DNA from: Escherichia phage DCP80
Length of the DNA: 64,000 nt
Sequence record: PQ671644.1
Reading direction: 5' to 3' (one strand)
Below the pieces are notes generated by a model. The model saw nothing but the letters and a program-made list of their open reading frames with translations, ran no database searches and was not told where the DNA came from. The position numbers and the translations under genes are program-made. Shown piece by piece: positions 8,994-61,540 of this stretch (position 1 is the first letter of the stretch; every line of letters begins with the position of its first letter).

Positions 8994-9040
8994 NNNNNNN
9001 NNNNNNNNNNNNNNNNNNNNNNNNNNNNNNNNNNNNNNNN
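8994..9040. other. assembly gap (N-run); junction between inverted homologous blocks
   Basis: 47 Ns; flanking sequence truncates gene 39 and its downstream ORF. Confidence 0.95.
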
Positions 9041-17790: not shown

Positions 17791-17800
17791 NNNNNNNNNN
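17791..17800. other. assembly gap (N-run)
   Basis: 10 Ns; gene content changes abruptly across it. Confidence 0.95.
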
Positions 17801-23360: not shown

Positions 23361-24320
23361 ATGTTAACGGTTAATGACAAAGAATTCATGTGGGAACAAA
23401 AATACCGCCCAGGTACATTATCAGAGTGTATTCTCCCGGCTCATGATAAAGAAACATTAGAGGCGATTGTTAAAAAAGGTTTGATTCCTAACTTGATTCT
23501 GGTCAGTAGTTCCCCTGGTACTGGTAAGACAACAGTTGCAAAAGCTATGTGCGCAGATACGAATTCTGATATGCTGTTTGTTAACGGCTCCGATTGCCGA
23601 ATTGACTTTGTGCGTAATGAATTGACTCGCTTTGCATCATCCAAATCAATCGAAGGTCGCCGTAAGGTAATTGTTATCGATGAGTTCGACCGTGCAGGTC
23701 TGGCAGAATCACAACGGCATCTTCGTAGCTTTATGGAAGCTTATTCAAGCAACTGTTCAATCATTATGACCGCGAACAATATTGATGGCATCATCACTCC
23801 GTTGCAGTCTCGTTGTCGCGTCATTAAGTTTGGTGAAGCAACTCCGGCTGACCAGACTACCATGATGAAAGAGATGATTCATCGTGCAGTCGCGATATGT
23901 AAAAACGAAGGCGTTGAAATCGAAGACCTGAAAGTTGTTGCTGCTTTGGTTAAGCATAACTTCCCGGACCTGCGTAAGACAATTAATGAGCTTGACCGTT
24001 ACTCTGCAAAGGGTGTTATCGATTCCGGTATTCTAAGCATCGTGACAAACAATCGCACGCCAATTGATGATGTGATTGATGCCCTTAAGGACCGTAACTT
24101 TAAAGTTCTCCGTGGTCTGGCTCCTAAGCATGCAAATGATTATTCAAGCTTCATTGCAAAGCTGGCTGATGAAATGTATGGCAAACTGACTGGTGCAAGT
24201 ATTATCCGCATGTATGAGATTGTAGGTGAGAATAATCAGTATCATGGCATTGCAGCCAATACCGAAGTTCACTTGACTTATCTGTTTGCTCAACTGGCTG
24301 GGGAAATGAAATGGCTGTAA
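23361..24320 (+). CDS. 44: clamp loader large subunit gp44 (AAA+)
   Basis: 319 aa; WEQKYRP, Walker A SPGTGKTT, Walker B VIVIDEFDR, sensor SRC; synteny 45-44-62. Confidence 0.9.
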   Translation: MLTVNDKEFMWEQKYRPGTLSECILPAHDKETLEAIVKKGLIPNLILVSSSPGTGKTTVAKAMCADTNSDMLFVNGSDCRIDFVRNELTRFASSKSIEGRRKVIVIDEFDRAGLAESQRHLRSFMEAYSSNCSIIMTANNIDGIITPLQSRCRVIKFGEATPADQTTMMKEMIHRAVAICKNEGVEIEDLKVVAALVKHNFPDLRKTINELDRYSAKGVIDSGILSIVTNNRTPIDDVIDALKDRNFKVLRGLAPKHANDYSSFIAKLADEMYGKLTGASIIRMYEIVGENNQYHGIAANTEVHLTYLFAQLAGEMKWL

Positions 24321-24742
24321 GTCTCTTTGATGATGACGTTCAATTAAACGAACATGAGGTTGCGTGGAAATCACGCGACTTTAACAAAATTCAGGAATTG
24401 TCCGATTCATACAAAGAGAAAGCAGAAAATGAATTGTTCGCGATTCTTAACGACATAACCGTTAGCAAAAAACCACGGAACCTGATTCAATCGGAAAACT
24501 ACAATAAATTCTGGCTGGACAATGCCTTGAGTCAACATGTCGATTGCATCATGCAGGTGAACGTGATGAACTTAATCGGTTCTGGATTAACAGACCAACA
24601 GCATTATAATTATTTGCTGCATGCGGTTCCACAAGGCAAGCGTTATGGCAAATGGGCGAAGGCTGAACCGGATGTAGTCAGCGTCCAGCTTGTGTTAAAG
24701 CTTTTGATGAAATATTATACAATTAATGCAGATGATGCTTTG
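24311..24742 (+). CDS. 62: clamp loader small subunit gp62, 3' end lost in gap
   Basis: MAVSLFDDDVQLNEHEVAW...KEKAENE...MNLIGSGL...NYLLHAVPQGKRYGKWAK matches recalled T4 gp62; ATG overlaps gp44 stop. Confidence 0.8.
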
Positions 24743-24760
24743 NNNNNNNNNNNNNNNNNN
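24743..24760. other. assembly gap (N-run)
   Basis: 18 Ns; strand and gene content switch across it. Confidence 0.95.
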
Positions 24761-24910
24761 ACGAATCTGACGTTTAGTCGGTCGCGCAACGTAAGCTTGT
24801 GTAGTTACTCGTCCAAAAACACCATACTTAGGCGAAGGAGTATCAATAAAGACTTCCCACTGGCAAGAGTAGCTATATATTGCTTTAGAGAATTGGGTCA
24901 AAACAAACAT
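24761..24910 (-). CDS. hypothetical protein, 3' end lost in gap
   Basis: MFVLTQFSKAIYSYS...; ATG embedded in TTAATATG junction with upstream gene. Confidence 0.4.
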
Positions 24911-24911
24911 A

Positions 24912-25271
24912 TTAACCTCGCTTCATGAAGGCATTAAAAATCTGGTCATCAATATCAGTAGGCGGTTCTTGAGCTTTGACCCAAGCCCCTTCCAGAATGT
25001 CATTCGCTTCAGTAGATAACATGACCCCAATTTCGGGGTTTCCCGTTATCCAGGCGGCGCAATCACGTACATTCTTTTTATCAAATGGATAGCCACGAGT
25101 ATCTTCATAAGGTCCATTCATTACCAGGAATGAGCGAGCCTTTATGATAATATCATCTTTAACGATAATATAACCAATCGCTTGATTAAACTGAGGGTCG
25201 CGGAATTCATAATGAGCATTACCATCATTATTGCTCGCCAGTTCAAAATTCAGAAAATTGTAATCATTCAT
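24912..25271 (-). CDS. hypothetical protein with shared C-terminal module DDQIFNAFMKR
   Basis: 119-aa ORF; last 13 codons plus stop/start junction are nucleotide-identical to the end of the upstream gene. Confidence 0.5.
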   Translation of the reverse strand: MNDYNFLNFELASNNDGNAHYEFRDPQFNQAIGYIIVKDDIIIKARSFLVMNGPYEDTRGYPFDKKNVRDCAAWITGNPEIGVMLSTEANDILEGAWVKAQEPPTDIDDQIFNAFMKRG

Positions 25272-25272
25272 A

Positions 25273-25707
25273 TTAATCTCGCTTCATGAAGGCATTAAAA
25301 ATCTGGTCGTCAACTGAATATACAGGGGTTTCCAGAAGTTTCAAAAGACTGTTTTTGATGTACTTACCCGGGATACCCTTAACAATACTGTCATTCAACT
25401 CATTATCAGGGTTGATGTCTTTAAATTCAAACCCGTCAAACTCAACCTTGTCAGGAATACCGTCAGCGAAAAAATAAACCAATTGGTGCATTGTATTGCG
25501 CGAAAATAATTTAGACTTGACCGCAATAAGTTCTTGCCAATGGTTTAATTCTTTGTTAAGAAGTTTATGAGCAAACGTAATTCTATTATCACTATCAACA
25601 AGAAAATAACCCAGGTATTGAATCTCGTCGCTCCAAAACACCCTGTATGCCTGCGCATTTGGATTTTTACAACGAAGTTTTTTGATAACCAAATTTCTGT
25701 TAATCAT
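25273..25707 (-). CDS. hypothetical protein with shared C-terminal module DDQIFNAFMKR
   Basis: Probable start MINRNLVIKK at 25707, 1 nt after sp stop, GGTGA RBS; track ORF extends into sp. Confidence 0.5.
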   Translation of the reverse strand: MINRNLVIKKLRCKNPNAQAYRVFWSDEIQYLGYFLVDSDNRITFAHKLLNKELNHWQELIAVKSKLFSRNTMHQLVYFFADGIPDKVEFDGFEFKDINPDNELNDSIVKGIPGKYIKNSLLKLLETPVYSVDDQIFNAFMKRD

Positions 25708-25708
25708 T

Positions 25709-26002
25709 TTATTCACCTGTAACCCATTGAACAATTTTGCTATTGTCAAATGAAGCATCGCAATACAGAATATAGTTATACTGCATAACGTCACCAGAAG
25801 ACAATTGGTCAGATACTTCTTTAACCATATCAGGGCGGTCACGTTTGGTTATGTTCATGATATCAGCACGAATCTGGGTTTCAACTTCAGATTGCTCTGC
25901 TGTCATAGACCATTCACAAAGGTTTTTATCAAGCCCAGCAGTAACTGGAGCTGTACCACATGATGCTACGGTAAGAATTGCTGCAATAATTAACTTTTTC
26001 AT
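25709..26002 (-). CDS. sp: Spackle-like periplasmic protein (lysozyme inhibitor / superinfection exclusion)
   Basis: 97 aa; signal peptide MKKLIIAAILTVASC, then ...DKNLCEWSMTAEQSEVETQIRADIMNI...GDVMQYNYILYCD resembles recalled T4 Sp; lies between 41 and 61. Confidence 0.6.
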   Translation of the reverse strand: MKKLIIAAILTVASCGTAPVTAGLDKNLCEWSMTAEQSEVETQIRADIMNITKRDRPDMVKEVSDQLSSGDVMQYNYILYCDASFDNSKIVQWVTGE

Positions 26003-26062
26003 AATGTTCTCCTCAGTAGTTGATATGGATAATATACTGCATTATCCCTTTGATGTAAACTG

Positions 26063-26266
26063 TTATTTTTCGTTAGAACGATAATCACATTCAAAAACTT
26101 TATTGCCATTAACAAAGGCTTTAACCAGCGCATTATTCACTTCTGCATACTGCACTGTAACCCATTCAATCATATTTTTGTCACTGACATCCAGGGCGGT
26201 TTCTTTGGTAAACATATTACCATTTTCAAACCAACCAATAAACACTACGTTCTCTAATTTATACAT
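26063..26266 (-). CDS. dmd: Dmd-like antitoxin (discriminator of mRNA degradation)
   Basis: 67 aa; VVFIGWFENGNMFTKE...QYAEVNNALVKAFV resembles recalled T4 Dmd; synteny near sp. Confidence 0.5.
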   Translation of the reverse strand: MYKLENVVFIGWFENGNMFTKETALDVSDKNMIEWVTVQYAEVNNALVKAFVNGNKVFECDYRSNEK

Positions 26267-26584
26267 TTAGATTTCCTCACAAAACGCCCAAGCGGCGTGA
26301 TAAACTGTTGCGCCTTTAGTATCATTTAAACAAACCACGTCAACAGGTGCAATCACACGATAAAGACGGGGTTCTCCTCCATATGAGCGAGCTGCTCTTC
26401 CTGCATAGATACGCGCCAAACCAATATCTTCAGTAAAAAACACACGCCCTAAATTTTTCTTACGTCCAACTTCTGACAGAACACCAGTTGCATCAGGAGG
26501 ACAAAGCATATTTTGGATTCCAGCATTAGAGCTTGACCCATGATAATAAACTTTGTATTCTGCCTTGCAATCAATGGTTTTCAT
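26267..26584 (-). CDS. small protein with PARP-like NAD-binding motifs (candidate minimal ADP-ribosyltransferase-fold protein)
   Basis: 105 aa; YYHGSSSNAGI (H-G-S), GRVFFTEDIGLARIYAG (aromatic-rich strand), GGEPRLYRV (candidate catalytic E); motif-level only. Confidence 0.35.
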   Translation of the reverse strand: MKTIDCKAEYKVYYHGSSSNAGIQNMLCPPDATGVLSEVGRKKNLGRVFFTEDIGLARIYAGRAARSYGGEPRLYRVIAPVDVVCLNDTKGATVYHAAWAFCEEI

Positions 26585-26620
26585 TTTATTCTCCAGTAGT
26601 TGATAGAGTCATTATAACAT

Positions 26621-26644
26621 AAGAAAAAGGGGCTGTAAGCCCCT
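26621..26644 (-). terminator. rho-independent terminator
   Basis: Minus strand AGGGGC-TTACA-GCCCCT followed by TTTTTCTT. Confidence 0.5.
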
Positions 26645-26652
26645 TTGTTCAC

Positions 26653-26955
26653 TTACGCCAACTCATAGTTGTGCATAGTCAGACAACGAATTTTCCCAGT
26701 AGTTGGGTGCATAACAGTCACACTAATTGTGTAATCATCACACACGTTAACAAAAGGTTCAGCGATAACATATACTGCCCCACCCGCCAACAGGTATTCA
26801 CGAAGAGAGCTGCGAACAGATGAAGGTTGAACATCGCTTTTGAGCTTTATTAATTTACCAGTTTGAATGCCTGATGCGATAAGAGCAGCACAGTTTTCAT
26901 CACGGCGAGCGAATTGTCCAAAATAGTAACGATTCATGTCGGTTTGATTAAACAT
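26653..26955 (-). CDS. hypothetical protein
   Basis: 100-aa ORF. Confidence 0.45.
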   Translation of the reverse strand: MFNQTDMNRYYFGQFARRDENCAALIASGIQTGKLIKLKSDVQPSSVRSSLREYLLAGGAVYVIAEPFVNVCDDYTISVTVMHPTTGKIRCLTMHNYELA

Positions 26956-27033
26956 ATGGTTTTCCTTTTAACAGTTGGTTTATTGTGTAACTCAGTATGA
27001 AATCATTATGTCCTAAGACAAGGGGCTTGTACA

Positions 27034-27282
27034 CTATTTTAATTCATTAATTAAATGAAAATCTTGTGCATTGAAAGTAATGAAAAAATAATCATTCCCT
27101 TCAACTGAAGCATGACAGGCAACACTACACCAGCGCCTTGCTCTGTTCAAGGAGCAATCCAAAATTTTAAAAGGCTTCAGACCAACAATGGCAGCTGTTC
27201 TTTTATTATGCTCACAAATATCAGCATACTTTTGGAGAGCTTCTTCAGATTTGAACTGGTAATGCACATTAACTAATAACAT
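27034..27282 (-). CDS. hypothetical protein
   Basis: 82-aa ORF, Cys-rich. Confidence 0.45.
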   Translation of the reverse strand: MLLVNVHYQFKSEEALQKYADICEHNKRTAAIVGLKPFKILDCSLNRARRWCSVACHASVEGNDYFFITFNAQDFHLINELK

Positions 27283-27347
27283 TTTATTATCCTCATCAGT
27301 AGTTGATGGGATAATAGTACACCCTTTTTATGGTGATGTAAACCTCT

Positions 27348-27376
27348 AAAATGAAAAAGACCCGAAGGGTCTTTAG
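27348..27376 (-). terminator. rho-independent terminator with UUCG tetraloop after gene 41
   Basis: Minus strand AAAGACCC-TTCG-GGTCTTT then TTCATTT; overlaps gp41 stop. Confidence 0.5.
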
Positions 27377-28812
27377 AATTTCATTTGAGCAGCAAGGTCG
27401 TCCAGGTCGCTCCTGTTGACCCTGGTTTGTCTATTCATTTCAGCCTGGCGATTCATCTCACCGGTGGCTTCTTTAACCGTAGGGCCTTGTTTAGGAGCTG
27501 AATCATCATCAACCTCGTACCAGCGCTGATTACCTTTCTTAACACCCATCTTGAATTTATTATAGTAGTTCTTATCGCCATAACGAGACTTAAGCTGTTT
27601 GATTAACTGCAGACCCATTTGAGCGAATTCTTCAGTCTCAACAACACCCAACATAAAGTCGGCCGTGTGAGCAATACCAAAGGATTCTGCGATGTCAGCC
27701 ATATCAATCTCAGCTGCAACGTTCGCGCCCCTGGTTGTCTGTGCTGCAGTCCACAGGACCACATTTTTCTCAACAGCCAGACCACGAAGTTCTTCTGCAA
27801 CCATCTTAATCAGGCCGTAACTGTTTTCGGTAAACGTTTTCAGTCTTGAGCTTGCACAGATTGCCAGGTAGTCAACAATAATCACATCCGGCACAAACCC
27901 TTGCTTCAGTTTGTATTCATTCAATAATGCACGGAAGGTATCTGCATGAGCACCGCCAGTTGGATATTGTTTTATCTTCAGAGTCCCAAGAGTCCCTGAT
28001 GCCCGCCATTTTTCCATCTTAGCTTTGTATTCTGCCCATGATATATGACCTTCATCAATATCATCCAGAGACACATCCAGCAAGTTGGCATCAATACGTT
28101 TGGCACATACTTCTTCAGCCATTTCCATGCTTATATAAAGCACGTTATGACCAGTCTGAAGATAGTCGGCCGCTAACGAACAAAGTCCCAGAGATTTCCC
28201 GACGTTTGTCCCGGCCAGTAAAACGTTCTCTGTGCCGTACTCAACTCCACCCTTCGTAATTTTATTCAGGATGTTAATACGGAACGGAACCTTCTTCGAT
28301 TTGTTCAGATAAGTCTGGAATCGAGCTTCGTAATCGTTTAACCAGTCATGGCCCAGTGCAGAGTCAAAACAGATAGACAATGCATCGCGCATGATATCAG
28401 GGATAGCACCAATATCTGGGATTCGTTTATCACGTTTATCTTTCGGAAGTTCGGCATTACTCTGGATTTCGATAATCCTGGATGTGGCATTGAACATCGC
28501 AGACTTCTGTACATACTTCTCGGTTTCTCTAACCAACCATTCCTGGTCTTCTGGAGTATCAGCCAGAACTCCTAAGAGTTTCTTTGTGCCTTCATATTCG
28601 ACTTCAGAAAGGTCAGAACTGTCAAGCGCAATATCAAGTGCAGTCTTAGTTGGTACCGCTTGATATTCTTTTACGTGTTCGTTAATCGTATTAAAAAGGG
28701 TCTTTGCAGGACCCTTTTCAAAATATGTGTTATTCAGATATGGCCAGACTTTAACAAAATATTCCTTGTTAAAGAGTAGCTGGGATAAAATAGTTTCTAC
28801 CACTTCCACCAC
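27373..28812 (-). CDS. 41: replicative DNA helicase gp41 (DnaB-like)
   Basis: 479 aa; Walker A GTNVGKS, Walker B IIVDYL, ...LGTLKIKQYPTGGA..., RecA-like C-terminal domain; matches recalled T4 gp41. Confidence 0.9.
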   Translation of the reverse strand: MVEVVETILSQLLFNKEYFVKVWPYLNNTYFEKGPAKTLFNTINEHVKEYQAVPTKTALDIALDSSDLSEVEYEGTKKLLGVLADTPEDQEWLVRETEKYVQKSAMFNATSRIIEIQSNAELPKDKRDKRIPDIGAIPDIMRDALSICFDSALGHDWLNDYEARFQTYLNKSKKVPFRINILNKITKGGVEYGTENVLLAGTNVGKSLGLCSLAADYLQTGHNVLYISMEMAEEVCAKRIDANLLDVSLDDIDEGHISWAEYKAKMEKWRASGTLGTLKIKQYPTGGAHADTFRALLNEYKLKQGFVPDVIIVDYLAICASSRLKTFTENSYGLIKMVAEELRGLAVEKNVVLWTAAQTTRGANVAAEIDMADIAESFGIAHTADFMLGVVETEEFAQMGLQLIKQLKSRYGDKNYYNKFKMGVKKGNQRWYEVDDDSAPKQGPTVKEATGEMNRQAEMNRQTRVNRSDLDDLAAQMKF

Positions 28813-29141
28813 CTCTTTTTCATTTTAATTTTATCAATTTCATCTTGTATTTGCATTGTAACACACTTTTCTACATGCACTGCAAGCTCCGCTTTGCGGT
28901 CTTCAGAAGGGGTGCCGAAATCAACTGAAACTTTTCCAGATGGTTCAATTTTAATTCCGGTTACGTACACAATGTGACTGGACCCATCAGGGAGTGATAA
29001 CAGAATTTCCTGCCGTACAGTTCCCATGGATTGCCGGATAATCTCCAAACTTTTTTCGTAGTAAGGTACAGAAGGAGCCTTAGCTCCCTCCGCATCTTTC
29101 TCGAAATTATCTAAATCAGATAAATCGATATCATTCATCAA
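28797..29141 (-). CDS. 40: gp40-like protein
   Basis: 114-aa ORF between uvsX and 41 with overlapping junctions; synteny-based. Confidence 0.55.
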   Translation of the reverse strand: MMNDIDLSDLDNFEKDAEGAKAPSVPYYEKSLEIIRQSMGTVRQEILLSLPDGSSHIVYVTGIKIEPSGKVSVDFGTPSEDRKAELAVHVEKCVTMQIQDEIDKIKMKKRWWKW

Positions 29142-30309
29142 GGTCTTCCATCATATCTAAATCGTTTTCGATATCTGCCGCAGACGGTTTTGTCTTACCT
29201 TCAGGAGCAGTGTATTTTTCAACCTTGGAGGCAATAAGCGCATCAACTTCGGCATCAACAACAGCATTGCTATCGATTGCACCCAGTTGGTAATGGCGTT
29301 TGATTGCATCACGGAAAGGTTCGTGCTTGAACAGCGGGCCCCAGAATTCGGTGCAGTTAGTATCTTTTGCGCGCCATGATTTTTCTTCGCGGACCATTTC
29401 ACCGGTCTCAACATCAAGATATTCACGGTTATACCAACCAACTTTTGGTTTCACCACAAATCCGATTTCCATTGCCATATCAAGCAGGCCAGAATACGGG
29501 TCAATCCCACCATCGAATTTTACATCAATGAAGAATTTACTTTTCTCTTTGACCATACGAGATTTTTCGGCGTTCAGAACAAATTGGAAGCCTTCAAGTT
29601 CTTTACCAGTTTCTTTAATCTGGCGTTTGCCGATAATGAATACGGTGTCCGCAGAATACATAACACCTGTACCGCCGGTCATAACGGTTTTACTGTACAT
29701 CTCAATCGTCTCGATTGTATGGTTAACCGCGACACAAGGAATATCCTTGATGCTAAAATACGGGGTAACAATACGGAACAGAGATTTCAGGGATTTGGCA
29801 CGAGTCATATCACCAACGACTTTTTCGTTCATCGCATCTTCTGTTTCTTTTTTCGACGCCATGTTACCGATTGAGTCAATAAAAATAATGACTTTTTCAC
29901 CACGCTCAATTGCTTCAAGCTGGTTAACCATATCAACTTTCAATTGTTCAACCGACTGGATTGGTGTATGGATAACACGTTCCGGGTCAACTTTCATTGC
30001 ACGAAGATATGCTTCTGTGATACCAAATTCTGAATCATAGAACAAACAGATTGCATCGGGGTATTTGTTCATATATGCAGAGACCATCGTTAAACCCATA
30101 TTGGATTTAAAGTGTTTTGACGGACCAGCAAAAATAGTCAAACCTGACTGCATACCACCATCTAGTGCACCGCTGATTGCAATGTTCAGCATCGGGATTT
30201 TTGTACGAACTACATCTTTACCATTAAAGAACTTGGACTTGGTAAGAGTCGCGGTCATTTTGGATGTAGAAGCTTTAATCAAACGGGATTTCAAATCTGC
30301 AATAGACAT
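29131..30309 (-). CDS. uvsX: recombinase UvsX (RecA-like)
   Basis: 392 aa; LKSRLIKASTSK...KIPMLNIAISGALDGGMQSGLTIFAGPSKHFKSN...LFYDSEFGIT...MVREEKSWRAKDTNCTEFWGPLFKHEPFRDAIKRHYQLG matches recalled T4 UvsX. Confidence 0.9.
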   Translation of the reverse strand: MSIADLKSRLIKASTSKMTATLTKSKFFNGKDVVRTKIPMLNIAISGALDGGMQSGLTIFAGPSKHFKSNMGLTMVSAYMNKYPDAICLFYDSEFGITEAYLRAMKVDPERVIHTPIQSVEQLKVDMVNQLEAIERGEKVIIFIDSIGNMASKKETEDAMNEKVVGDMTRAKSLKSLFRIVTPYFSIKDIPCVAVNHTIETIEMYSKTVMTGGTGVMYSADTVFIIGKRQIKETGKELEGFQFVLNAEKSRMVKEKSKFFIDVKFDGGIDPYSGLLDMAMEIGFVVKPKVGWYNREYLDVETGEMVREEKSWRAKDTNCTEFWGPLFKHEPFRDAIKRHYQLGAIDSNAVVDAEVDALIASKVEKYTAPEGKTKPSAADIENDLDMMEDLDE

Positions 30310-30362
30310 TCATTTTTTCCATAGGCACCATCATATTTTTCTCACAGGTTTAAGATAGGATA

Positions 30363-30389
30363 ATTATATCACTGTATTTTTAGAGCAAT
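30363..30389 (-). promoter_or_regulatory. possible middle promoter (MotA-box-like plus -10) upstream of uvsX
   Basis: Minus strand TTGCTCTA, 12 nt, TATAAT; one mismatch to the recalled MotA box consensus. Confidence 0.3.
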
Positions 30390-30651
30390 TAACGATTGAA
30401 TCCACGATTAATTGCACGTTCAACAATCTTCCGGGTCTGACGTTTGTCCCACCAGTACATAAACCCAATACCAAATGCAGACAACAGCCATAAGCTAATC
30501 AATAACATACCAATCATAATATTCTTCTCACAGTTCAGGGAAATTTAGTAAACGTTACCACGTTTCCAGTTTTCTTCAGCCAAATGCTTATTACGCTTTT
30601 CTAATAGCAACAAACCAATTACTGTTACAACAATCAGAAGTAATAATAACA

Positions 30652-30886
30652 TCAGTTAATACCTTGGCGTGCTTTCTCTTTAGCTACACATTTATTAATA
30701 TAGCTCAGACGGTTTTGAGCAGAACGCTGATACATATCACGATACTCATTAGCTTTTGGAGAACCCGTCTCCGCTGCCTGATAAGCTTCCGCGCGCATGA
30801 TGTTTATCTGCATATTGATGTATGACATGCAGACCTGCGAAATCTGGTTAACAGTATCCAGGTCATTTTGTCGCTTGGTTTCTGCT
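30652..30886 (-). CDS. 3' end of unidentified gene, 5' part lost in gap
   Basis: Open frame ending at stop 30652, running into N-run. Confidence 0.35.
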
Positions 30887-30940
30887 NNNNNNNNNNNNNN
30901 NNNNNNNNNNNNNNNNNNNNNNNNNNNNNNNNNNNNNNNN
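30887..30940. other. assembly gap (N-run)
   Basis: 54 Ns. Confidence 0.95.
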
Positions 30941-36510: not shown

Positions 36511-36520
36511 NNNNNNNNNN
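36511..36520. other. assembly gap (N-run)
   Basis: 10 Ns; cuts gene 34. Confidence 0.95.
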
Positions 36521-41146: not shown

Positions 41147-41659
41147 TCAGTAAGAAAGAACGGAAAGATTCCATAATTTATAGTCTTCCCATCTATAAAT
41201 GCTCTCAATAGAGTCCACGCGTAGCGTAGTTCCCGCAGGGAACATCATCTCATCTTCATCATTTACTAATTGTAAGTTTGAAGAACGAGTTATTTCAGGA
41301 TATAGTCCGTTGAACTCTTCAGGAGGTGCCGCACAAATCATTTTAAAAATCGCTTCCTGATAATCAAATGCGAATGGTGCATCATTAATACAGAAAATAT
41401 TTTTGGTTCCATAGAAGCTAAAGGAAGCAAAGTTACGCGCAACACTGAAATCTTTGGAGAAACTCATTACACGGTCAAACTCAATCGTAGCACCAACACA
41501 TCCTACGGTTTCAAGATATGCCAAAGTTTTCTTAGAAATCCCGCGATATAACTTACCAGGCACAGCAGAAGTCAAATTCTTACGAATAATTTTGTTCAAA
41601 GTTTCCTGGATAGTGTCTGGCTTATTTTCCATGCACTGCCAGAGTGTACTCTGTTCCAA
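41147..41659 (-). CDS. ADP-ribosyltransferase, ModA/ModB-like (R-S-E class)
   Basis: 170 aa; KLYRGIS (Arg), SFS/FSFYGTK (S-x-S), NDEDEMMFPAG (E-x-E-like); position upstream of srd-like gene as in T4 modA. Confidence 0.5.
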   Translation of the reverse strand: MEQSTLWQCMENKPDTIQETLNKIIRKNLTSAVPGKLYRGISKKTLAYLETVGCVGATIEFDRVMSFSKDFSVARNFASFSFYGTKNIFCINDAPFAFDYQEAIFKMICAAPPEEFNGLYPEITRSSNLQLVNDEDEMMFPAGTTLRVDSIESIYRWEDYKLWNLSVLSY

Positions 41660-41759: not shown

Positions 41760-41800
41760 NNNNNNNNNNNNNNNNNNNNNNNNNNNNNNNNNNNNNNNNN
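41760..41800. other. assembly gap (N-run)
   Basis: 41 Ns. Confidence 0.95.
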
Positions 41801-41818
41801 TGGGTCAAAACAAACATA

Positions 41819-42178
41819 TTAACCTCGCTTCATGAAGGCATTAAAAATCTGGTCATCAATATCAGTAGGCGGTTCTTGAGCTTTGACCCAAGCCCCTTCC
41901 AGAATGTCATTTGCTTCAGTAGATATCATGACCCCAATTTCAGGGTTTCCGGTTATCCATACTGCACAATCGCGGACATTCTTTTTATCAAATGGATAAC
42001 CACGATTATCTTCACAAGGCCCATTCATTGTCATAAATGAACGAGCCTTTATGATAACATCATCTTTAACGATAATATAACCAATCGCCTGATTATAACG
42101 AGGCTCACGAAATTCATAGTGAGCATTACCATTATTATTGCTCACCAGTTCAAAATTCAGAAAATTATAATAACTCAT
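41819..42178 (-). CDS. hypothetical protein with shared C-terminal module (copy 2)
   Basis: 119 aa, homolog of 24912-25271. Confidence 0.5.
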   Translation of the reverse strand: MSYYNFLNFELVSNNNGNAHYEFREPRYNQAIGYIIVKDDVIIKARSFMTMNGPCEDNRGYPFDKKNVRDCAVWITGNPEIGVMISTEANDILEGAWVKAQEPPTDIDDQIFNAFMKRG

Positions 42179-42179
42179 A

Positions 42180-42620
42180 TTAATCTCGCTTCATGAAGGC
42201 ATTAAAAATTTGGTCGTCAACTGAATATACAGGGGTTTCCAGAAGTTTCAAAAGACTGTTTTTAATGTACTTACCCGGGATACCCATATTAACAATACTG
42301 TCATTCAATTCATTATCAGGGTTGATGTCTTTAAATTCAAACCCATCAAATTCAACCTTGTCAGGAATACCATCAGCGAAAAAATAAACCAATTGGTGCA
42401 TTGTATTGCGCGAAAATAATTTAGACTTGACCGCAATAAGTTCTTGCCAATGGTTTAATTCTTTGTTAAGAAGTTTATGAGCAAACGTAATTCTATTATC
42501 ACTATCAACAAGAAAATAACCCAGGTATTGAATGGGTTCGTCGCTCCAAAACATCCTGTATGCTTGTGCATTTTGATTTTTACAACGAAGTTTTTTGATA
42601 ACTAGAGTTCTGTTAATCAT
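42180..42620 (-). CDS. hypothetical protein with shared C-terminal module (copy 2)
   Basis: Homolog of 25273-25707 with two in-frame indels (DEPIQY vs DEIQY; VNMGIPG vs VKGIPG). Confidence 0.5.
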   Translation of the reverse strand: MINRTLVIKKLRCKNQNAQAYRMFWSDEPIQYLGYFLVDSDNRITFAHKLLNKELNHWQELIAVKSKLFSRNTMHQLVYFFADGIPDKVEFDGFEFKDINPDNELNDSIVNMGIPGKYIKNSLLKLLETPVYSVDDQIFNAFMKRD

Positions 42621-42621
42621 T

Positions 42622-42915
42622 TTATTCACCTGTAACCCATTGAACAATCTTGCTGTTGTCAAATGAAGCATCGCAATACAGAACATAGTTATACTGCATA
42701 ACATCACCAGAAGTCAATTGGTCAGATACTTCTTTAACCATATCAGGACGGTCACGTTTAGTAATATTCATGATGTCAGCATAAATCTGATGTTCAACAT
42801 CAGCCTGGTCAGCAGTCATGGACCACTCGCAAAGGTCTTTATCAAGTCCAGCAGTAACTGGAGCTGTGCCACATGATGCTACGGTAAGAATTGCTGCGAT
42901 TAATAACTTTTTCAT
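42622..42915 (-). CDS. sp: Spackle-like periplasmic protein (copy 2)
   Basis: 97 aa, homolog of 25709-26002. Confidence 0.6.
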   Translation of the reverse strand: MKKLLIAAILTVASCGTAPVTAGLDKDLCEWSMTADQADVEHQIYADIMNITKRDRPDMVKEVSDQLTSGDVMQYNYVLYCDASFDNSKIVQWVTGE

Positions 42916-42973
42916 TTCAATCTCCTCAGTAGTTGATAGGGATAATATACTGCATTATCCCTATGTTGTACAC

Positions 42974-43177
42974 TTATTTTTCGTTAGAACGATAATCATA
43001 TTCAAAAACTTTATTGTCATTAACAAAGGCTTTAACCAGTGCATTATTCACTTCTGCATACTGCACTGTAATCCATTCAATCATATTTTTGTCACTGACA
43101 TCTAGCGCGGTTTCTTTGGTAAACATATTACCATTTTCAAACCAACCAATAAACACTACGTTCTCTAATTTATACAT
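42974..43177 (-). CDS. dmd: Dmd-like antitoxin (copy 2)
   Basis: 67 aa, homolog of 26063-26266. Confidence 0.5.
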   Translation of the reverse strand: MYKLENVVFIGWFENGNMFTKETALDVSDKNMIEWITVQYAEVNNALVKAFVNDNKVFEYDYRSNEK

Positions 43178-43495
43178 TTAGATTTCCTCACAAAACGCCC
43201 AGGCGGCGTGATAAACTGTTGCACCTTTAGTGTCATTTAAACAAACCACGTCAACAGGTGCAATCACACGATAAAGACGGGGTTCTCCTCCATATGAGCG
43301 AGCTGCTCTTCCTGCATAGATACGCGCCAAACCAATATCTTCAGTAAAAAACACACGCCCTAAATTTTTCTTACGCCCAACTTCTGACAGAACACCAGTT
43401 GCATCAGGAGGACAAAGCATATTTTGGATTCCAGCATTAGAGCTTGAGCCATGATAATAAACTTTGTATTCTGCCTTGCAATCAATGGTTTTCAT
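43178..43495 (-). CDS. PARP-like-motif small protein (copy 2)
   Basis: 105 aa, identical in translation to 26267-26584. Confidence 0.35.
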   Translation of the reverse strand: MKTIDCKAEYKVYYHGSSSNAGIQNMLCPPDATGVLSEVGRKKNLGRVFFTEDIGLARIYAGRAARSYGGEPRLYRVIAPVDVVCLNDTKGATVYHAAWAFCEEI

Positions 43496-43563
43496 TTTAT
43501 TCTCCAGTAGTTGATAGGGTCATTATAACATAAGAAAAAGGGGCTTACAGCCCCTTTGTTCAC

Positions 43564-43866
43564 TTACGCCAACTCATAGTTGTGCATAGTCAGACAACGA
43601 ATTTTCCCAGTAGTTGGGTGCATAACAGTCACACTAATTGTGTAATCATCACACACGTTAACAAAAGGTTCGGCGATAACATATACTGCCCCACCTGCCA
43701 ACAGGTACTCACGAAGAGAGCTGCGAACAGATGAAGGTTGAACATCGCTTTTGAGCTTTATTAATTTACCAGTTTGAATGCCTGATGCGATAAGAGCAGC
43801 ACAGTTTTCATCACGGCGAGCGAACTGACCAAAATAGTAACGGTTCATATCGGTTTGATTAAACAT
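43564..43866 (-). CDS. hypothetical protein (copy 2)
   Basis: 100 aa, homolog of 26653-26955. Confidence 0.45.
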   Translation of the reverse strand: MFNQTDMNRYYFGQFARRDENCAALIASGIQTGKLIKLKSDVQPSSVRSSLREYLLAGGAVYVIAEPFVNVCDDYTISVTVMHPTTGKIRCLTMHNYELA

Positions 43867-43944
43867 ATGGTTTTCCTTTTAACAGTTGGTTTATTGTGTA
43901 ACTCAGTATGGAATCATTATGTCCTAAGACAAGGGGCTTGTACA

Positions 43945-44193
43945 CTATTTTAATTCATTAATTAAATGAAAATCTTGTGCATTGAAAGTAATGAAAAAAT
44001 AATCATTCCCTTCAACTGAAGCATGACAGGCAACACTACACCAGCGCCTTGCTCTGTTCAAGGAGCAATCCAAAATTTTAAAAGGCTTCAGACCAACAAT
44101 GGCAGCTGTTCTTTTATTATGCTCACAAATATCAGCATACTTTTGGAGAGCTTCTTCAGATTTGAACTGGTAATGCACATTAACTAATAACAT
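43945..44193 (-). CDS. hypothetical protein (copy 2)
   Basis: 82 aa, homolog of 27034-27282. Confidence 0.45.
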   Translation of the reverse strand: MLLVNVHYQFKSEEALQKYADICEHNKRTAAIVGLKPFKILDCSLNRARRWCSVACHASVEGNDYFFITFNAQDFHLINELK

Positions 44194-44281
44194 TTTATTA
44201 TCCTCATCAGTAGTTGATGGGATAATAGTACACCCTTTTTATGGTGATGTAAACCTCTAAATGAAAAAGACCCGAAGGTCT

Positions 44282-45721
44282 TTAGAATTTCATTTGAGCA
44301 GCAAGGTCGTCCAGGTCGCTCCTGTTGACCCTGGTTTGTCTATTCATTTCAGCCTGACGATTCATCTCACCGGTGGCTTCTTTAACCGTAGGGCCTTGTT
44401 TAGGAGCTGAATCATCATCAACCTCGTACCAGCGCTGATTACCTTTCTTAACACCCATCTTGAATTTATTATAGTAGTTCTTATCGCCATAACGAGACTT
44501 AAGCTGTTTGATTAACTGTAGTCCCATTTGAGCGAATTCTTCGGTCTCAACAACACCCAACATAAAGTCGGCCGTGTGAGCAATACCAAAGGATTCTGCG
44601 ATGTCAGCCATATCAATCTCAGCTGCAACGTTCGCACCCCTGGTTGTCTGCGCTGCAGTCCACAGGACTACATTTTTCTCAACAGCCAGACCACGAAGTT
44701 CTTCTGCAACCATCTTAATCAGGCCGTAACTGTTTTCGGTAAACGTTTTCAGTCTTGAGCTTGCACAGATTGCCAGGTAGTCAACAATAATCACATCCGG
44801 CACAAACCCTTGCTTCAGTTTGTATTCATTCAATAATGCACGGAAGGTATCTGCATGAGCGCCGCCAGTTGGATATTGTTTTATCTTCAGAGTCCCAAGA
44901 GTCCCGGAAGCACGCCACTTTTCCATCTTAGCTTTATATTCCGCCCATGATATATGACCTTCATCAATATCATCCAGAGATACATCCAGCAAGTTGGCAT
45001 CAATACGTTTGGCACATACTTCTTCAGCCATTTCCATGCTTATATAAAGAACATTATGACCAGTCTGAAGATAGTCAGCAGCTAACGAACAAAGTCCAAG
45101 AGATTTACCGACGTTTGTCCCGGCCAGTAAAACGTTCTCTGTACCGTACTCAACCCCACCCTTTGTGATTTTATTCAGGATGTTAATACGGAACGGAACC
45201 TTCTTCGATTTGTTCAGATAAGTCTGGAATCGAGCTTCGTAATCGTTTAACCAGTCATGGCCCAGAGCAGAGTCAAAACAGATAGACAATGCATCGCGCA
45301 TGATGTCGGGGATAGCACCAATATCCGGGATTCGTTTATCACGTTTATCTTTCGGAAGTTCGGCATTACTCTGGATTTCGATAATCCTGGATGTGGCATT
45401 GAACATCGCAGACTTCTGCACATACTTCTCGGTTTCTTTAACCAACCATTCCTGGTCTTCTGGAGTATCGGCCAGGACTCCTAAGAGTTTCTTTGTGCCT
45501 TCATATTCGACTTCAGAAAGGTCAGAACTGTCGAGCGCGATATCAAGTGCAGTCTTAGTTGGTACCGCTTGATATTCTTTTACGTGTTCGTTAATCGTAT
45601 TAAAAAGAGTCTTCGCGGGACCCTTTTCAAAATATGTGTTATTCAGATACGGCCAGACTTTAACAAAATATTCCTTGTTAAAGAGTAGCTGGGATAAAAT
45701 AGTTTCTACCACTTCCACCAC
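44282..45721 (-). CDS. 41: replicative DNA helicase gp41 (copy 2)
   Basis: 479 aa, near-identical to 27373-28812. Confidence 0.9.
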   Translation of the reverse strand: MVEVVETILSQLLFNKEYFVKVWPYLNNTYFEKGPAKTLFNTINEHVKEYQAVPTKTALDIALDSSDLSEVEYEGTKKLLGVLADTPEDQEWLVKETEKYVQKSAMFNATSRIIEIQSNAELPKDKRDKRIPDIGAIPDIMRDALSICFDSALGHDWLNDYEARFQTYLNKSKKVPFRINILNKITKGGVEYGTENVLLAGTNVGKSLGLCSLAADYLQTGHNVLYISMEMAEEVCAKRIDANLLDVSLDDIDEGHISWAEYKAKMEKWRASGTLGTLKIKQYPTGGAHADTFRALLNEYKLKQGFVPDVIIVDYLAICASSRLKTFTENSYGLIKMVAEELRGLAVEKNVVLWTAAQTTRGANVAAEIDMADIAESFGIAHTADFMLGVVETEEFAQMGLQLIKQLKSRYGDKNYYNKFKMGVKKGNQRWYEVDDDSAPKQGPTVKEATGEMNRQAEMNRQTRVNRSDLDDLAAQMKF

Positions 45722-46050
45722 CTCTTTTTCATTTTAATTTTATCAATTTCATCTTGTATTTGCATTGTAACACACTTTTCTACATGCACAGCAAGCTCCG
45801 CTTTGCGGTCTTCAGAAGGGGTGCCGAAATCAACTGAAACTTTTCCAGATGGTTCAATTTTAATTCCGGTTACGTACACAATGTGACTGGACCCATCAGG
45901 GAGTGATAACAGAATTTCCTGTCGTACGGTTCCCATGGATTGCCGGATAATCTCCAAACTTTTTTCGTAGTAAGGTACAGAAGGAGCCTTAGCTCCCTCC
46001 GCATCTTTCTCGAAATTATCTAAATCAGATAAATCGATATCATTCATCAA
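45706..46050 (-). CDS. 40: gp40-like protein (copy 2)
   Basis: 114 aa, identical in translation to 28797-29141. Confidence 0.55.
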   Translation of the reverse strand: MMNDIDLSDLDNFEKDAEGAKAPSVPYYEKSLEIIRQSMGTVRQEILLSLPDGSSHIVYVTGIKIEPSGKVSVDFGTPSEDRKAELAVHVEKCVTMQIQDEIDKIKMKKRWWKW

Positions 46051-47030
46051 GGTCTTCCATCATATCTAAATCGTTTTCGATATCTGCCGCAGACGGTTTT
46101 GTCTTACCTTCAGGAGCAGTGTATTTTTCAACCTTGGAGGCAATAAGCGCATCAACTTCGGCATCAACAACAGCATTGCTATCGATTGCACCCAGCTGGT
46201 AATGGCGTTTGATTGCGTCACGGAAAGGTTCGTGCTTGAACAACGGGCCCCAGAATTCGGTGCAGTTAGTATCTTTTGCGCGCCATGATTTTTCTTCGCG
46301 GACCATTTCACCGGTCTCAACATCAAGATATTCACGGTTATACCAACCAACTTTCGGTTTCACCACAAATCCGATTTCCATTGCCATATCAAGCAGGCCA
46401 GAATACGGGTCAATACCGCCATCGAATTTTACATCAATGAAGAATTTACTTTTCTCTTTGACCATACGAGATTTTTCGGCGTTCAGAACAAATTGGAAAC
46501 CTTCAAGTTCTTTACCAGTTTCTTTAATCTGGCGTTTGCCGATAATGAATACGGTGTCTGCGGAATACATAACACCTGTACCACCGGTCATAACGGTTTT
46601 GCTATACATCTCAATCGTCTCGATTGTATGGTTAACCGCGACACAAGGAATATCCTTGATGCTAAAATATGGAGTAACAATACGGAACAGAGATTTCAGG
46701 GATTTGGCACGAGTCATATCGCCAACAACTTTTTCGTTCATCGCATCTTCTGTTTCTTTTTTCGACGCCATGTTACCGATTGAGTCAATAAAGATAATGA
46801 CTTTTTCACCACGCTCAATTGCTTCAAGCTGGTTAACCATATCAACTTTCAATTGTTCAACCGACTGGATTGGTGTGTGGATAACACGTTCCGGGTCAAC
46901 TTTCATTGCACGAAGATAGGCTTCTGTGATACCAAATTCTGAATCATAGAACAAACAGATTGCATCGGGGTATTTGTTCATATATGCAGAGACCATCGTT
47001 AAACCCATATTGGATTTAAAGTGTTTTGAC
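46040..47030 (-). CDS. uvsX: recombinase UvsX (copy 2), 5' end lost in gap
   Basis: C-terminal ~330 aa, near-identical to the 29131-30309 copy. Confidence 0.85.
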
Positions 47031-47080
47031 NNNNNNNNNNNNNNNNNNNNNNNNNNNNNNNNNNNNNNNNNNNNNNNNNN
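47031..47080. other. assembly gap (N-run)
   Basis: 50 Ns. Confidence 0.95.
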
Positions 47081-52285: not shown

Positions 52286-52300
52286 NNNNNNNNNNNNNNN
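52286..52300. other. assembly gap (N-run)
   Basis: 15 Ns; joins gene 47 to an unrelated late-gene block. Confidence 0.95.
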
Positions 52301-57004: not shown

Positions 57005-57040
57005 NNNNNNNNNNNNNNNNNNNNNNNNNNNNNNNNNNNN
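57005..57040. other. assembly gap (N-run)
   Basis: 36 Ns. Confidence 0.95.
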
Positions 57041-61504: not shown

Positions 61505-61540
61505 ANNNNNNNNNNNNNNNNNNNNNNNNNNNNNNNNNNN
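61505..61540. other. assembly gap (N-run)
   Basis: 36 Ns. Confidence 0.95.

Follow-up and report, generated by a model that had tools for sequence, protein, structure and literature searches.

A small gene next to dmd in T4-like phages encodes a divergent, C-terminally truncated relative of Arr with a predicted ADP-ribosyltransferase fold

A stretch of 64,000 nucleotides from the sequence record PQ671644.1 of Escherichia phage DCP80 (hereafter the window) carries, directly upstream of a homolog of the T4 antitoxin gene dmd, a gene for a protein of 105 amino acids (aa). From family alignments and a predicted structure, we conclude that this protein is a divergent, C-terminally truncated relative of the rifampin-modifying enzyme Arr with an ADP-ribosyltransferase (ART) fold, and, on balance, we lean towards the view that it serves as an early-expressed, Arr-derived, NAD-dependent mono-ADP-ribosyltransferase effector directed against a host or defence target. 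That an ART fold is found next to Dmd is already known as a prediction, namely as the 'p0068-family ART + Dmd' toxin-antitoxin pair postulated for enterophages (Iyer, Burroughs, Anantharaman and Aravind, 2022; PMC9503650), and several GenBank records call homologs '(putative) ADP-ribosyl transferase' or 'rifampin ADP-ribosyl transferase'. Since the prediction of an ART predates this work, the novelty of the assignment is low, and the term 'uncharacterised', as used in a preliminary description of the gene that was made from the letters of the window, holds with regard to experiments, of which we found none, but not with regard to prediction and annotation. The present analysis adds that Arr is the closest relative, that the glutamates initially considered catalytic are variable, that the active-site signature reads H15/E38/F49 instead, and that the pairing with Dmd is specific to certain lineages.

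A conserved gene with homology to Arr

The open reading frame (ORF) begins with ATG, runs from position 26584 to 26267 of the minus strand and encodes a protein of 11.5 kDa, whose translation contains all three strings on which the preliminary description was based (YYHGSSSNAGI, GRVFFTEDIGLARIYAG and GGEPRLYRV). Well beyond chance, it represents a real gene, and it is under strong purifying selection, as the ratio of nonsynonymous to synonymous substitution rates (dN/dS) is ~0.1: in comparison with homologs from IMG/VR, dN amounts to 0.11-0.12 at a dS of ~1.2, and dN/dS to about 0.07-0.1 where dS is unsaturated. A tblastn search found the gene in 612 phage records, essentially at full length in 605-607 of them, with Escherichia (215), Klebsiella (116), Acinetobacter (68) and Aeromonas (62) as hosts, in addition to Enterobacter, Cronobacter and Vibrio. 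In PHROG, the family (PHROG 2110) is labelled 'unknown function'.

The AlphaFold2 model of the protein, computed from a 41-sequence alignment (predicted local distance difference test, pLDDT, 87.7; predicted template modelling score, pTM, 0.79), comprises six strands and one long helix and has the split beta-sheet fold of ARTs, as the preliminary description had anticipated. Structure comparison by Foldseek puts Arr first (2HW2; probability 1.0, template modelling score, TM, 0.61), and the third match in BFVD is a viral 94-aa 'Ms Rifampin ADP-ribosyl transferase' (34% identity, TM 0.72, E 4.6e-8). When the family profile was compared by hhalign with that of Arr-ms and Arr-2, residues 6-84 of the window protein were aligned with residues 14-82 of Arr-ms (94.8% probability, E 5e-8), so that homology extends over the NAD-binding two-thirds.

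An exhaustive profile search for the family, which comprised 243 cluster representatives, yielded relatives that score above the gathering score of the Arr-ms model PF12120 (cut-off 25 bits), namely P0133 (27.5), P0148 (29.4), P0160 (27.3) and P0128 (26.9), and 14 of the 35 members of a broadened alignment match PF12120 at E<=0.01, with four exceeding the cut-off. The window protein itself gave no match to PF12120 at E<=1. As its relatives match and the window protein does not, we consider it homologous to the Arr-ms family while lying outside the curated model. The relationship surfaced only through the broadened profile (A2), hhalign and the fold comparison: among PDB sequences, three Arr entries were the only matches of A2, at a borderline E value (0.08), and A1, the profile of the close family, had none. 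The window protein, minimal and stand-alone, belongs to a tight family that forms a divergent, C-terminally truncated branch of the Arr lineage.

The window protein shares with Arr (Arr-ms, 2HW2/9IAF; Arr-2, 9IBA; PF12120) its small, single-domain architecture, the H-G-[ST] motif, the E-x-G-R loop and, on the next strand, an aromatic residue followed by Thr. It differs by its length (105 aa compared to 143-151 aa), by a K-K-N-L insertion in the NAD loop and by an invariant Phe in place of Tyr49, and whereas Arr resides in resistance cassettes, the window family is found in lytic T4-like phages and in polyvalent proteins. One could imagine that the phage protein is nevertheless a true Arr that provides the infected cell with resistance to a rifamycin-like small molecule, given that Arr is its closest sequence relative and that one GenBank record names a homolog accordingly. 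However, the aligned part is restricted to Arr residues 14-82, and nothing in the 105 aa corresponds to the DPN[VL] motif, to D84 or to the rifampin-contacting C-terminal region (PMC6092378), as only ~20 residues follow the aligned core where Arr has residues 85-140. A virulent coliphage would also have no obvious use for rifamycin resistance. Because neither DPN[VL] nor the rifampin-binding C-terminal part has a counterpart, a rifampin-modifying role is very unlikely, and with the substrate-binding half of Arr missing, true rifampin resistance was rejected.

The profile searches further bear on the idea that the protein is a nucleic acid-directed enzyme similar to the RNA 2'-phosphotransferase Tpt1/KptA and would ADP-ribosylate RNA or DNA ends or remove a phosphate from them. 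In the Tpt1 motif an Arg precedes the His, whereas the window protein has a Tyr before H15. From Pfam, NCBIfam and PDB sequences, the searches reach Arr alone and never Tpt1, and a single domain of 105 aa offers no room for the N-terminal RNA-binding lobe of Tpt1, of which the NAD lobe alone aligns (75 residues). A conserved basic cluster (R41, K42, K43 and R63), two neighbours that are both tied to mRNA metabolism (a goF-like ORF and Dmd) and the fusion of the domain to 2H phosphoesterase and NUDIX in polyvalent proteins would be compatible with such an enzyme. RNA substrates have also been speculated for the p0068 family, which was assigned to the H-Y-[EDQ] clade with Arr kept as a separate family (PMC9503650), whereas our profile searches tie the window family to Arr. 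Altogether, we regard a Tpt1-like function as improbable.

Active-site signature and predicted activity

In Arr-ms, H19, G20, T21 and Y49 bind NAD and D84 is catalytic, and the protein carries a DPN[VL] motif (PMC6092378). After verification of the Arr-ms residue numbering, the alignment equates H15 of the window protein with H19, S17 with T21, E38 with E40, G40 with G42, R41 with R43, F49 with Y49 and T51 with T51, and conservation was read in two alignments of 41 and 35 sequences. In both alignments, H15 and G16 never vary and residue 17 is a Ser or Thr, so that the NAD-binding His is retained. The H-G-S strand and the aromatic-rich strand proposed in the preliminary description are thereby recovered, with H15-G16-S17 corresponding to H19-G20-T21 and VFFT to the IYIT strand of Arr that bears Y49. 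E38, present in 40/41 and 35/35 sequences, is the sole invariant acid and lies in the NAD-binding loop. H15, G16, E38, F49, Y60, G69, G70 and G91 show no or almost no variation in either alignment, and R41, K42, K43, N44, L45 and R63 are conserved to at least 90%.

The catalytic Glu that had been suggested initially could not be found among these residues, as E52 is a Glu in only 14/41 and 4/35 sequences and E71 in 19/41 and 8/35. With respect to the Arr triad H19-Y49-D84, the His is kept, Phe stands in for the Tyr and Arr residue 82 is the last to be aligned; the conserved Glu, Asp or Gln of the third motif of the H-Y-[EDQ] clade is likewise missing, with the equivalent residue tentatively placed by ungapped extension. 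As judged from the alignments, the active-site signature is therefore H15/E38/F49, i.e. H-F-x with an invariant Glu in the NAD loop, and not H-Y-E, and the label 'PARP-like' has to be given up.

On the reading that we favour, the gene and dmd would form one unit, for which a promoter-like element of its own, located downstream of gene 41, would drive early transcription. The protein would bind NAD+ through H15-G16-S17, the S37-E38-x-G40-R41-K42-K43 loop and F49 and would move ADP-ribose onto a host or host-defence target, thus acting as a takeover or counter-defence effector; in other phages, the same module would be built into injected polyvalent proteins. Catalytic activity, the nature of the target, the early timing and the effector role are inferred.

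Several observations weigh against an active transferase of this kind. The position of the conserved Tyr of the H-Y-E clade, to which the protein had initially been assigned, is occupied by Phe in 41/41 and 35/35 sequences, that is, by an aromatic residue without hydroxyl group. The hhalign alignment ends two residues before Arr D84, and ungapped extension puts D84 near L86, N87 or D88, none of which is invariant; N87 and D88 are conserved to only 50-66% (N87 as Asn in about 55-60% and D88 as Asp in about 55-65% of the sequences), and no conserved acid is found near this position. The window protein as query had no match in Pfam, NCBIfam, PDB sequences or PADLOC, and the promoter upstream of its gene was called from a consensus match alone, from which its function is inferred. 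Lastly, a literature search found no experimental study of the gene and no data on activity, toxicity or a phenotype. The ART gene does not come up in the HIDEN-SEQ and DarTG1 papers, and a search for orf040c of phage RB69 matched only the unrelated ORF names Aeh1ORF040c and RB49ORF040c.

A more far-reaching version of the effector hypothesis, which we regard as rather unlikely in its entirety, would have an active Arr-derived transferase with an H-F-x site in which catalysis is accomplished by the invariant E38 of the NAD loop or by the substrate itself. Its target would, as for Arr, not be a protein, but for instance the end of an RNA or an immune signal in the form of a small molecule or nucleotide, and its modification would disarm host defence. 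The enzyme would reach the cell in one of two ways, by immediate-early expression in T-even phages or ready-made within injected polyvalent proteins. If true, T-even phages, including the model phage RB69, would possess a fourth ADP-ribosylation arm with a mechanism of its own.

The domain in polyvalent proteins

The same domain is found embedded in large proteins of up to 3924 aa. In P0154 (954 aa), it is combined with a lambda-type portal (Phage_portal_2) and a 2H/Acb1-like phosphoesterase, and in P0152 (1955 aa) with ART-PolyVal and NUDIX; it further occurs with ART-PolyVal in P0131 and P0139, with CHAP in P0171 and with GNAT and Toprim in P0177. DUF7178 also co-occurs with it in large phage proteins, and viral contigs of 230-460 kb carry the domain in ORFs of 288-850 aa. 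As such, the family includes effector modules of polyvalent proteins (Iyer et al., 2017), and the window copy is a stand-alone version. Polyvalent proteins have been proposed by the Aravind group to be packaged and injected early, together with the DNA (PMC9503650). The combinations with other ADP-ribose-related enzymes in P0154 and P0152 suggest NAD/ADP-ribose-processing cassettes inside such injected proteins. Taken with the position among the early genes of T-even phages, the occurrence in polyvalent proteins points to an enzyme that acts on the host as soon as infection begins.

Because a conserved acid is missing from the third motif, there is room for a non-catalytic ligand binder that has lost its catalytic acid and serves as a sponge for NAD+, ADP-ribose or an immune signal derived from ADP-ribose. 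The exchange of Tyr for Phe, the very small size of the protein and its apparently early expression would all be in line with such a role. The family has, however, kept a His of the catalytic type, the HG[ST] motif and the invariant Glu of the NAD loop, and the catalytic Glu is likewise missing from some PARP-type mono-ARTs that are active. In addition, the domain is present as a single copy in low-copy injected polyvalent proteins beside ART-PolyVal, NUDIX and 2H, that is, next to enzymes, and for this reason an enzyme fits better than a stoichiometric sponge, which we consider quite unlikely.

With regard to the favoured transferase, precedents for phage ARTs in takeover and counter-defence exist. 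AcrIF11, a small ART encoded by phages and plasmids (PDB 6KYF), has anti-CRISPR function. It shows no detectable sequence similarity to the window protein and targets the type I-F Csy complex, which is not known to play a part here. T-even phages represent the classic phage ADP-ribosylation system, with Alt, ModA and ModB of T4 as NAD-dependent ARTs in host takeover and counter-defence. These enzymes belong to the R-S-E clade, are larger and have no sequence relation to the H-type Arr-like family, and Alt is packaged in the head; the family would hence add an unrelated H-type ART to this system. The window contains a second, ModA/ModB/Alt-like ART as well, a 170-aa ORF at 41147-41659 (minus strand) with an R-S-E-type signature (YRG...SFS...EDEMMF), which matches phrog_832 'RNA polymerase ADP-ribosylase' (E 3.9e-39) and gave no match in a Pfam search.

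The H-type family is conserved in ~600 Straboviridae genomes, including RB69 according to a GenBank annotation note, and since RB69-type model phages carry the gene, it would be a reasonable experimental target. Identification of what the protein modifies could reveal a new step of takeover or counter-defence.

Lineage-specific pairing with Dmd

The window family is very probably the p0068 family, which is concluded from context, because the window gene is the only ART next to dmd here. As in the published pair, a predicted ART adjoins Dmd in T4-like phages of Escherichia, Shigella and Salmonella, a description that is matched uniquely. The arrangement announced by the preliminary description was confirmed by Pfam, with Dmd following directly downstream of the ART gene and then Spackle (sp; PF25676, E 1.7e-42) and two further small ORFs, sp again on the minus strand. 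The stop codon of the ART gene abuts the start codon of dmd (junction TAAATG), and for this reason the two genes are probably co-transcribed as one two-gene early transcription unit. Direct adjacency of an ART and dmd is found in the window, in phages RZ and JS98 and in 10 IMG/VR loci.

It has been proposed by Iyer et al. (2022) that the two genes form a phage-borne type II toxin-antitoxin pair, with the ART as toxin and the adjacent Dmd as its dedicated antitoxin. The abutting genes (TAA-ATG) behind a common upstream promoter-like element, the proven function of Dmd as antitoxin against RnlA and LsoA, and the Mod-like ART that is found at the same position beside Dmd in some Klebsiella phages (PMC9503650) are in favour of this proposal, as are the similar numbers of Escherichia-type records that contain the ART at >=80% identity (~257) and Dmd at >=60% identity (~245). 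A conserved ART-Dmd pair is, however, not found across the 68 IMG/VR loci. In only 10 of them is the downstream gene Dmd, and the others have at least eight unrelated families in its place, including a small membrane protein (8), a Cys-rich protein (4) and a 96-aa lipoprotein (2). ARTs that are about 85-87% identical to the window ART have such other neighbours, namely a Cys-rich 46-aa protein in L013, the 96-aa lipoprotein in L020, and L015 likewise. In phages of Klebsiella, Acinetobacter, Aeromonas and Erwinia, the ORFs downstream of the ART are related neither to Dmd nor to each other, and in a Vibrio phage the gene after the ART lies on the opposite strand. Dmd, in turn, is present in 753 records, ~500 of which are T4-type phages without the ART, as in T4 itself, where gene 41 is directly followed by dmd (gap 58 nt) and where dmd is not required if rnlA has been deleted from the host. 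Furthermore, the ART domain is also fused into polyvalent proteins without a partner.

As Dmd is downstream in 10/68 loci and often present without the ART, an obligate toxin-antitoxin relationship is unlikely, though one may exist within the Gapriver-, Dhaka- and Mosigvirus lineages; overall, we give the dedicated toxin-antitoxin pair a low probability. The link to Dmd is one of lineage-specific synteny or co-expression and not obligate. Between the two window copies of the locus, the ART protein is unchanged and Dmd carries three substitutions.

In other lineages, two kinds of small protein recur downstream of the ART, usually with a 4-nt overlap. One is an acidic protein of 41-46 aa with the pattern CxxC...CxxC (L013, L023, L024 and L025, at about 2789-2958), and the other a protein of 55-58 aa that is predicted to span the membrane (L026, L028, L029, L032, L033 and L035-L037, at about 2815-2991). 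In LR027390.1 (mar005P1), a feature annotated as 'dmd' overlaps the end of the ART match. In L015, an IMG/VR contig of equal length, the ORF that overlaps the ART stop codon encodes a 96-aa lipoprotein-like product without similarity to Dmd, and the 'dmd' feature in LR027390.1 may be a mis-annotation.

Genomic context and expression signals

The window is a composite of ~11 pieces that are separated by runs of N, and ORFs across these runs, such as 24311-24928 on the plus strand, are artefacts. A 'second copy' of the gene had been noted before; the identical protein is indeed encoded a second time, but a duplication within one genome is not likely. The two gene copies differ at 5 of 318 nt, all five differences being synonymous, and the pieces in which they reside (24761-30886 and 41801-47030) are 96.6% identical across 5.2 kb. 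As the copies lie in separate N-delimited pieces with this degree of identity, they most likely represent the same locus from two closely related genomes, and intragenomic duplication was rejected on the same grounds. The features of the locus are compiled in Table 1.

Table 1. Positions of the ART gene, its motifs, its neighbours and the N runs in the window.
Feature	Position	Strand	Evidence or remark
ART gene, copy 1 (PHROG 2110)	26267..26584	-	ORF; phrog_2110, E 1.3e-58; AlphaFold2 model; hhalign to Arr
ART gene, copy 2	43178..43495	-	separate N-delimited piece; protein identical to copy 1
H15-G16-S17 codons, H-G-[ST] NAD-binding motif, end of strand 1	26534..26542	-	aligns with Arr H19-G20-T21
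E38-x-G40-R41-K42-K43-N44-L45 codons, signature basic loop of the family	26450..26473	-	E38/G40/R41 correspond to Arr E40/G42/R43
V48-F49-F50-T51 codons	26432..26443	-	F49 at the position of Arr Y49
GC-rich hairpin overlapping promoter-like site, extended -10 TGTTATAAT	26611..26646	-	directly upstream of the ART gene
Gene 41, helicase	27373-28812	-	first in gene order
goF-like ORF, 82 aa, directly after gene 41	27034-27282 and 43945-44193	-	PHROG 2980, E 3.6e-20
100-aa ORF between goF-like ORF and ART gene		-	phrog_17014; function not assigned
dmd, copy 1, 67 aa	26063..26266	-	Pfam Dmd PF17587, E 1.1e-19; phrog_2102
dmd, copy 2	42974..43177	-	3 amino-acid differences to copy 1
N runs	8994-9040, 17791-17800, 24743-24760, 30887-30940, 36511-36520		
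N runs, continued	41760-41800, 47031-47080, 52286-52300, 57005-57040, 61506-61540		

The closest genomes are those of Gaprivervirus phages: Shigella phage SP18, ECML-359 and others encode the same protein (100% identity), and vB_EcoM_RZ, with the same gene order, has one of 99% identity. In the window, gene 41 and dmd are separated by an insertion of three ORFs (82, 100 and 105 aa), while JS98 has the ART gene directly between the two, annotated as 'similar to RB69 orf040c'. The ART gene is absent from the corresponding position of T4, since gene 41 runs straight to dmd there, which agrees with the earlier impression that it is not a named T4 gene; the direct comparison covered this position, and absence from the rest of the T4 genome is suggested by the record counts.

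A GGAG ribosome-binding site is found 8 nt upstream of the ART start codon. The stem of the upstream hairpin and the -10 element are kept in the second copy of the locus, and the loop and the -35 region differ. A GC-rich hairpin with a promoter-like site behind it is also present at 27314-27374 (minus strand), and the arrangement recurs before successive small ORFs downstream of gene 41. It is reminiscent of the cassettes of promoter and stem-loop that have been described in connection with the modular shuffling of T4-type genomes.

The 82-aa ORF matches the PHROG family 'goF mRNA metabolism modulator' and additionally shows a weak match to a CGNR zinc finger. This ORF and Dmd lend the insertion a flavour of mRNA metabolism. 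Downstream of dmd, gene 61.4 precedes sp in T4 (L008) and JS98 (L009), whereas in the window (26003-26062) dmd is followed by sp without it. The two ORFs downstream of sp, at 25273-25842 and 24912-25271 (both minus strand), occupy the position of T4 61.2 (adfA) and 61.1 and carry almost the same motif at their C-termini (DDQIFNAFMKR[DG]), and phrog_8539 cross-matches the tail of the second. The first of them, in its listed form of 189 aa, probably starts too early, as its PHROG match begins at residue 46.
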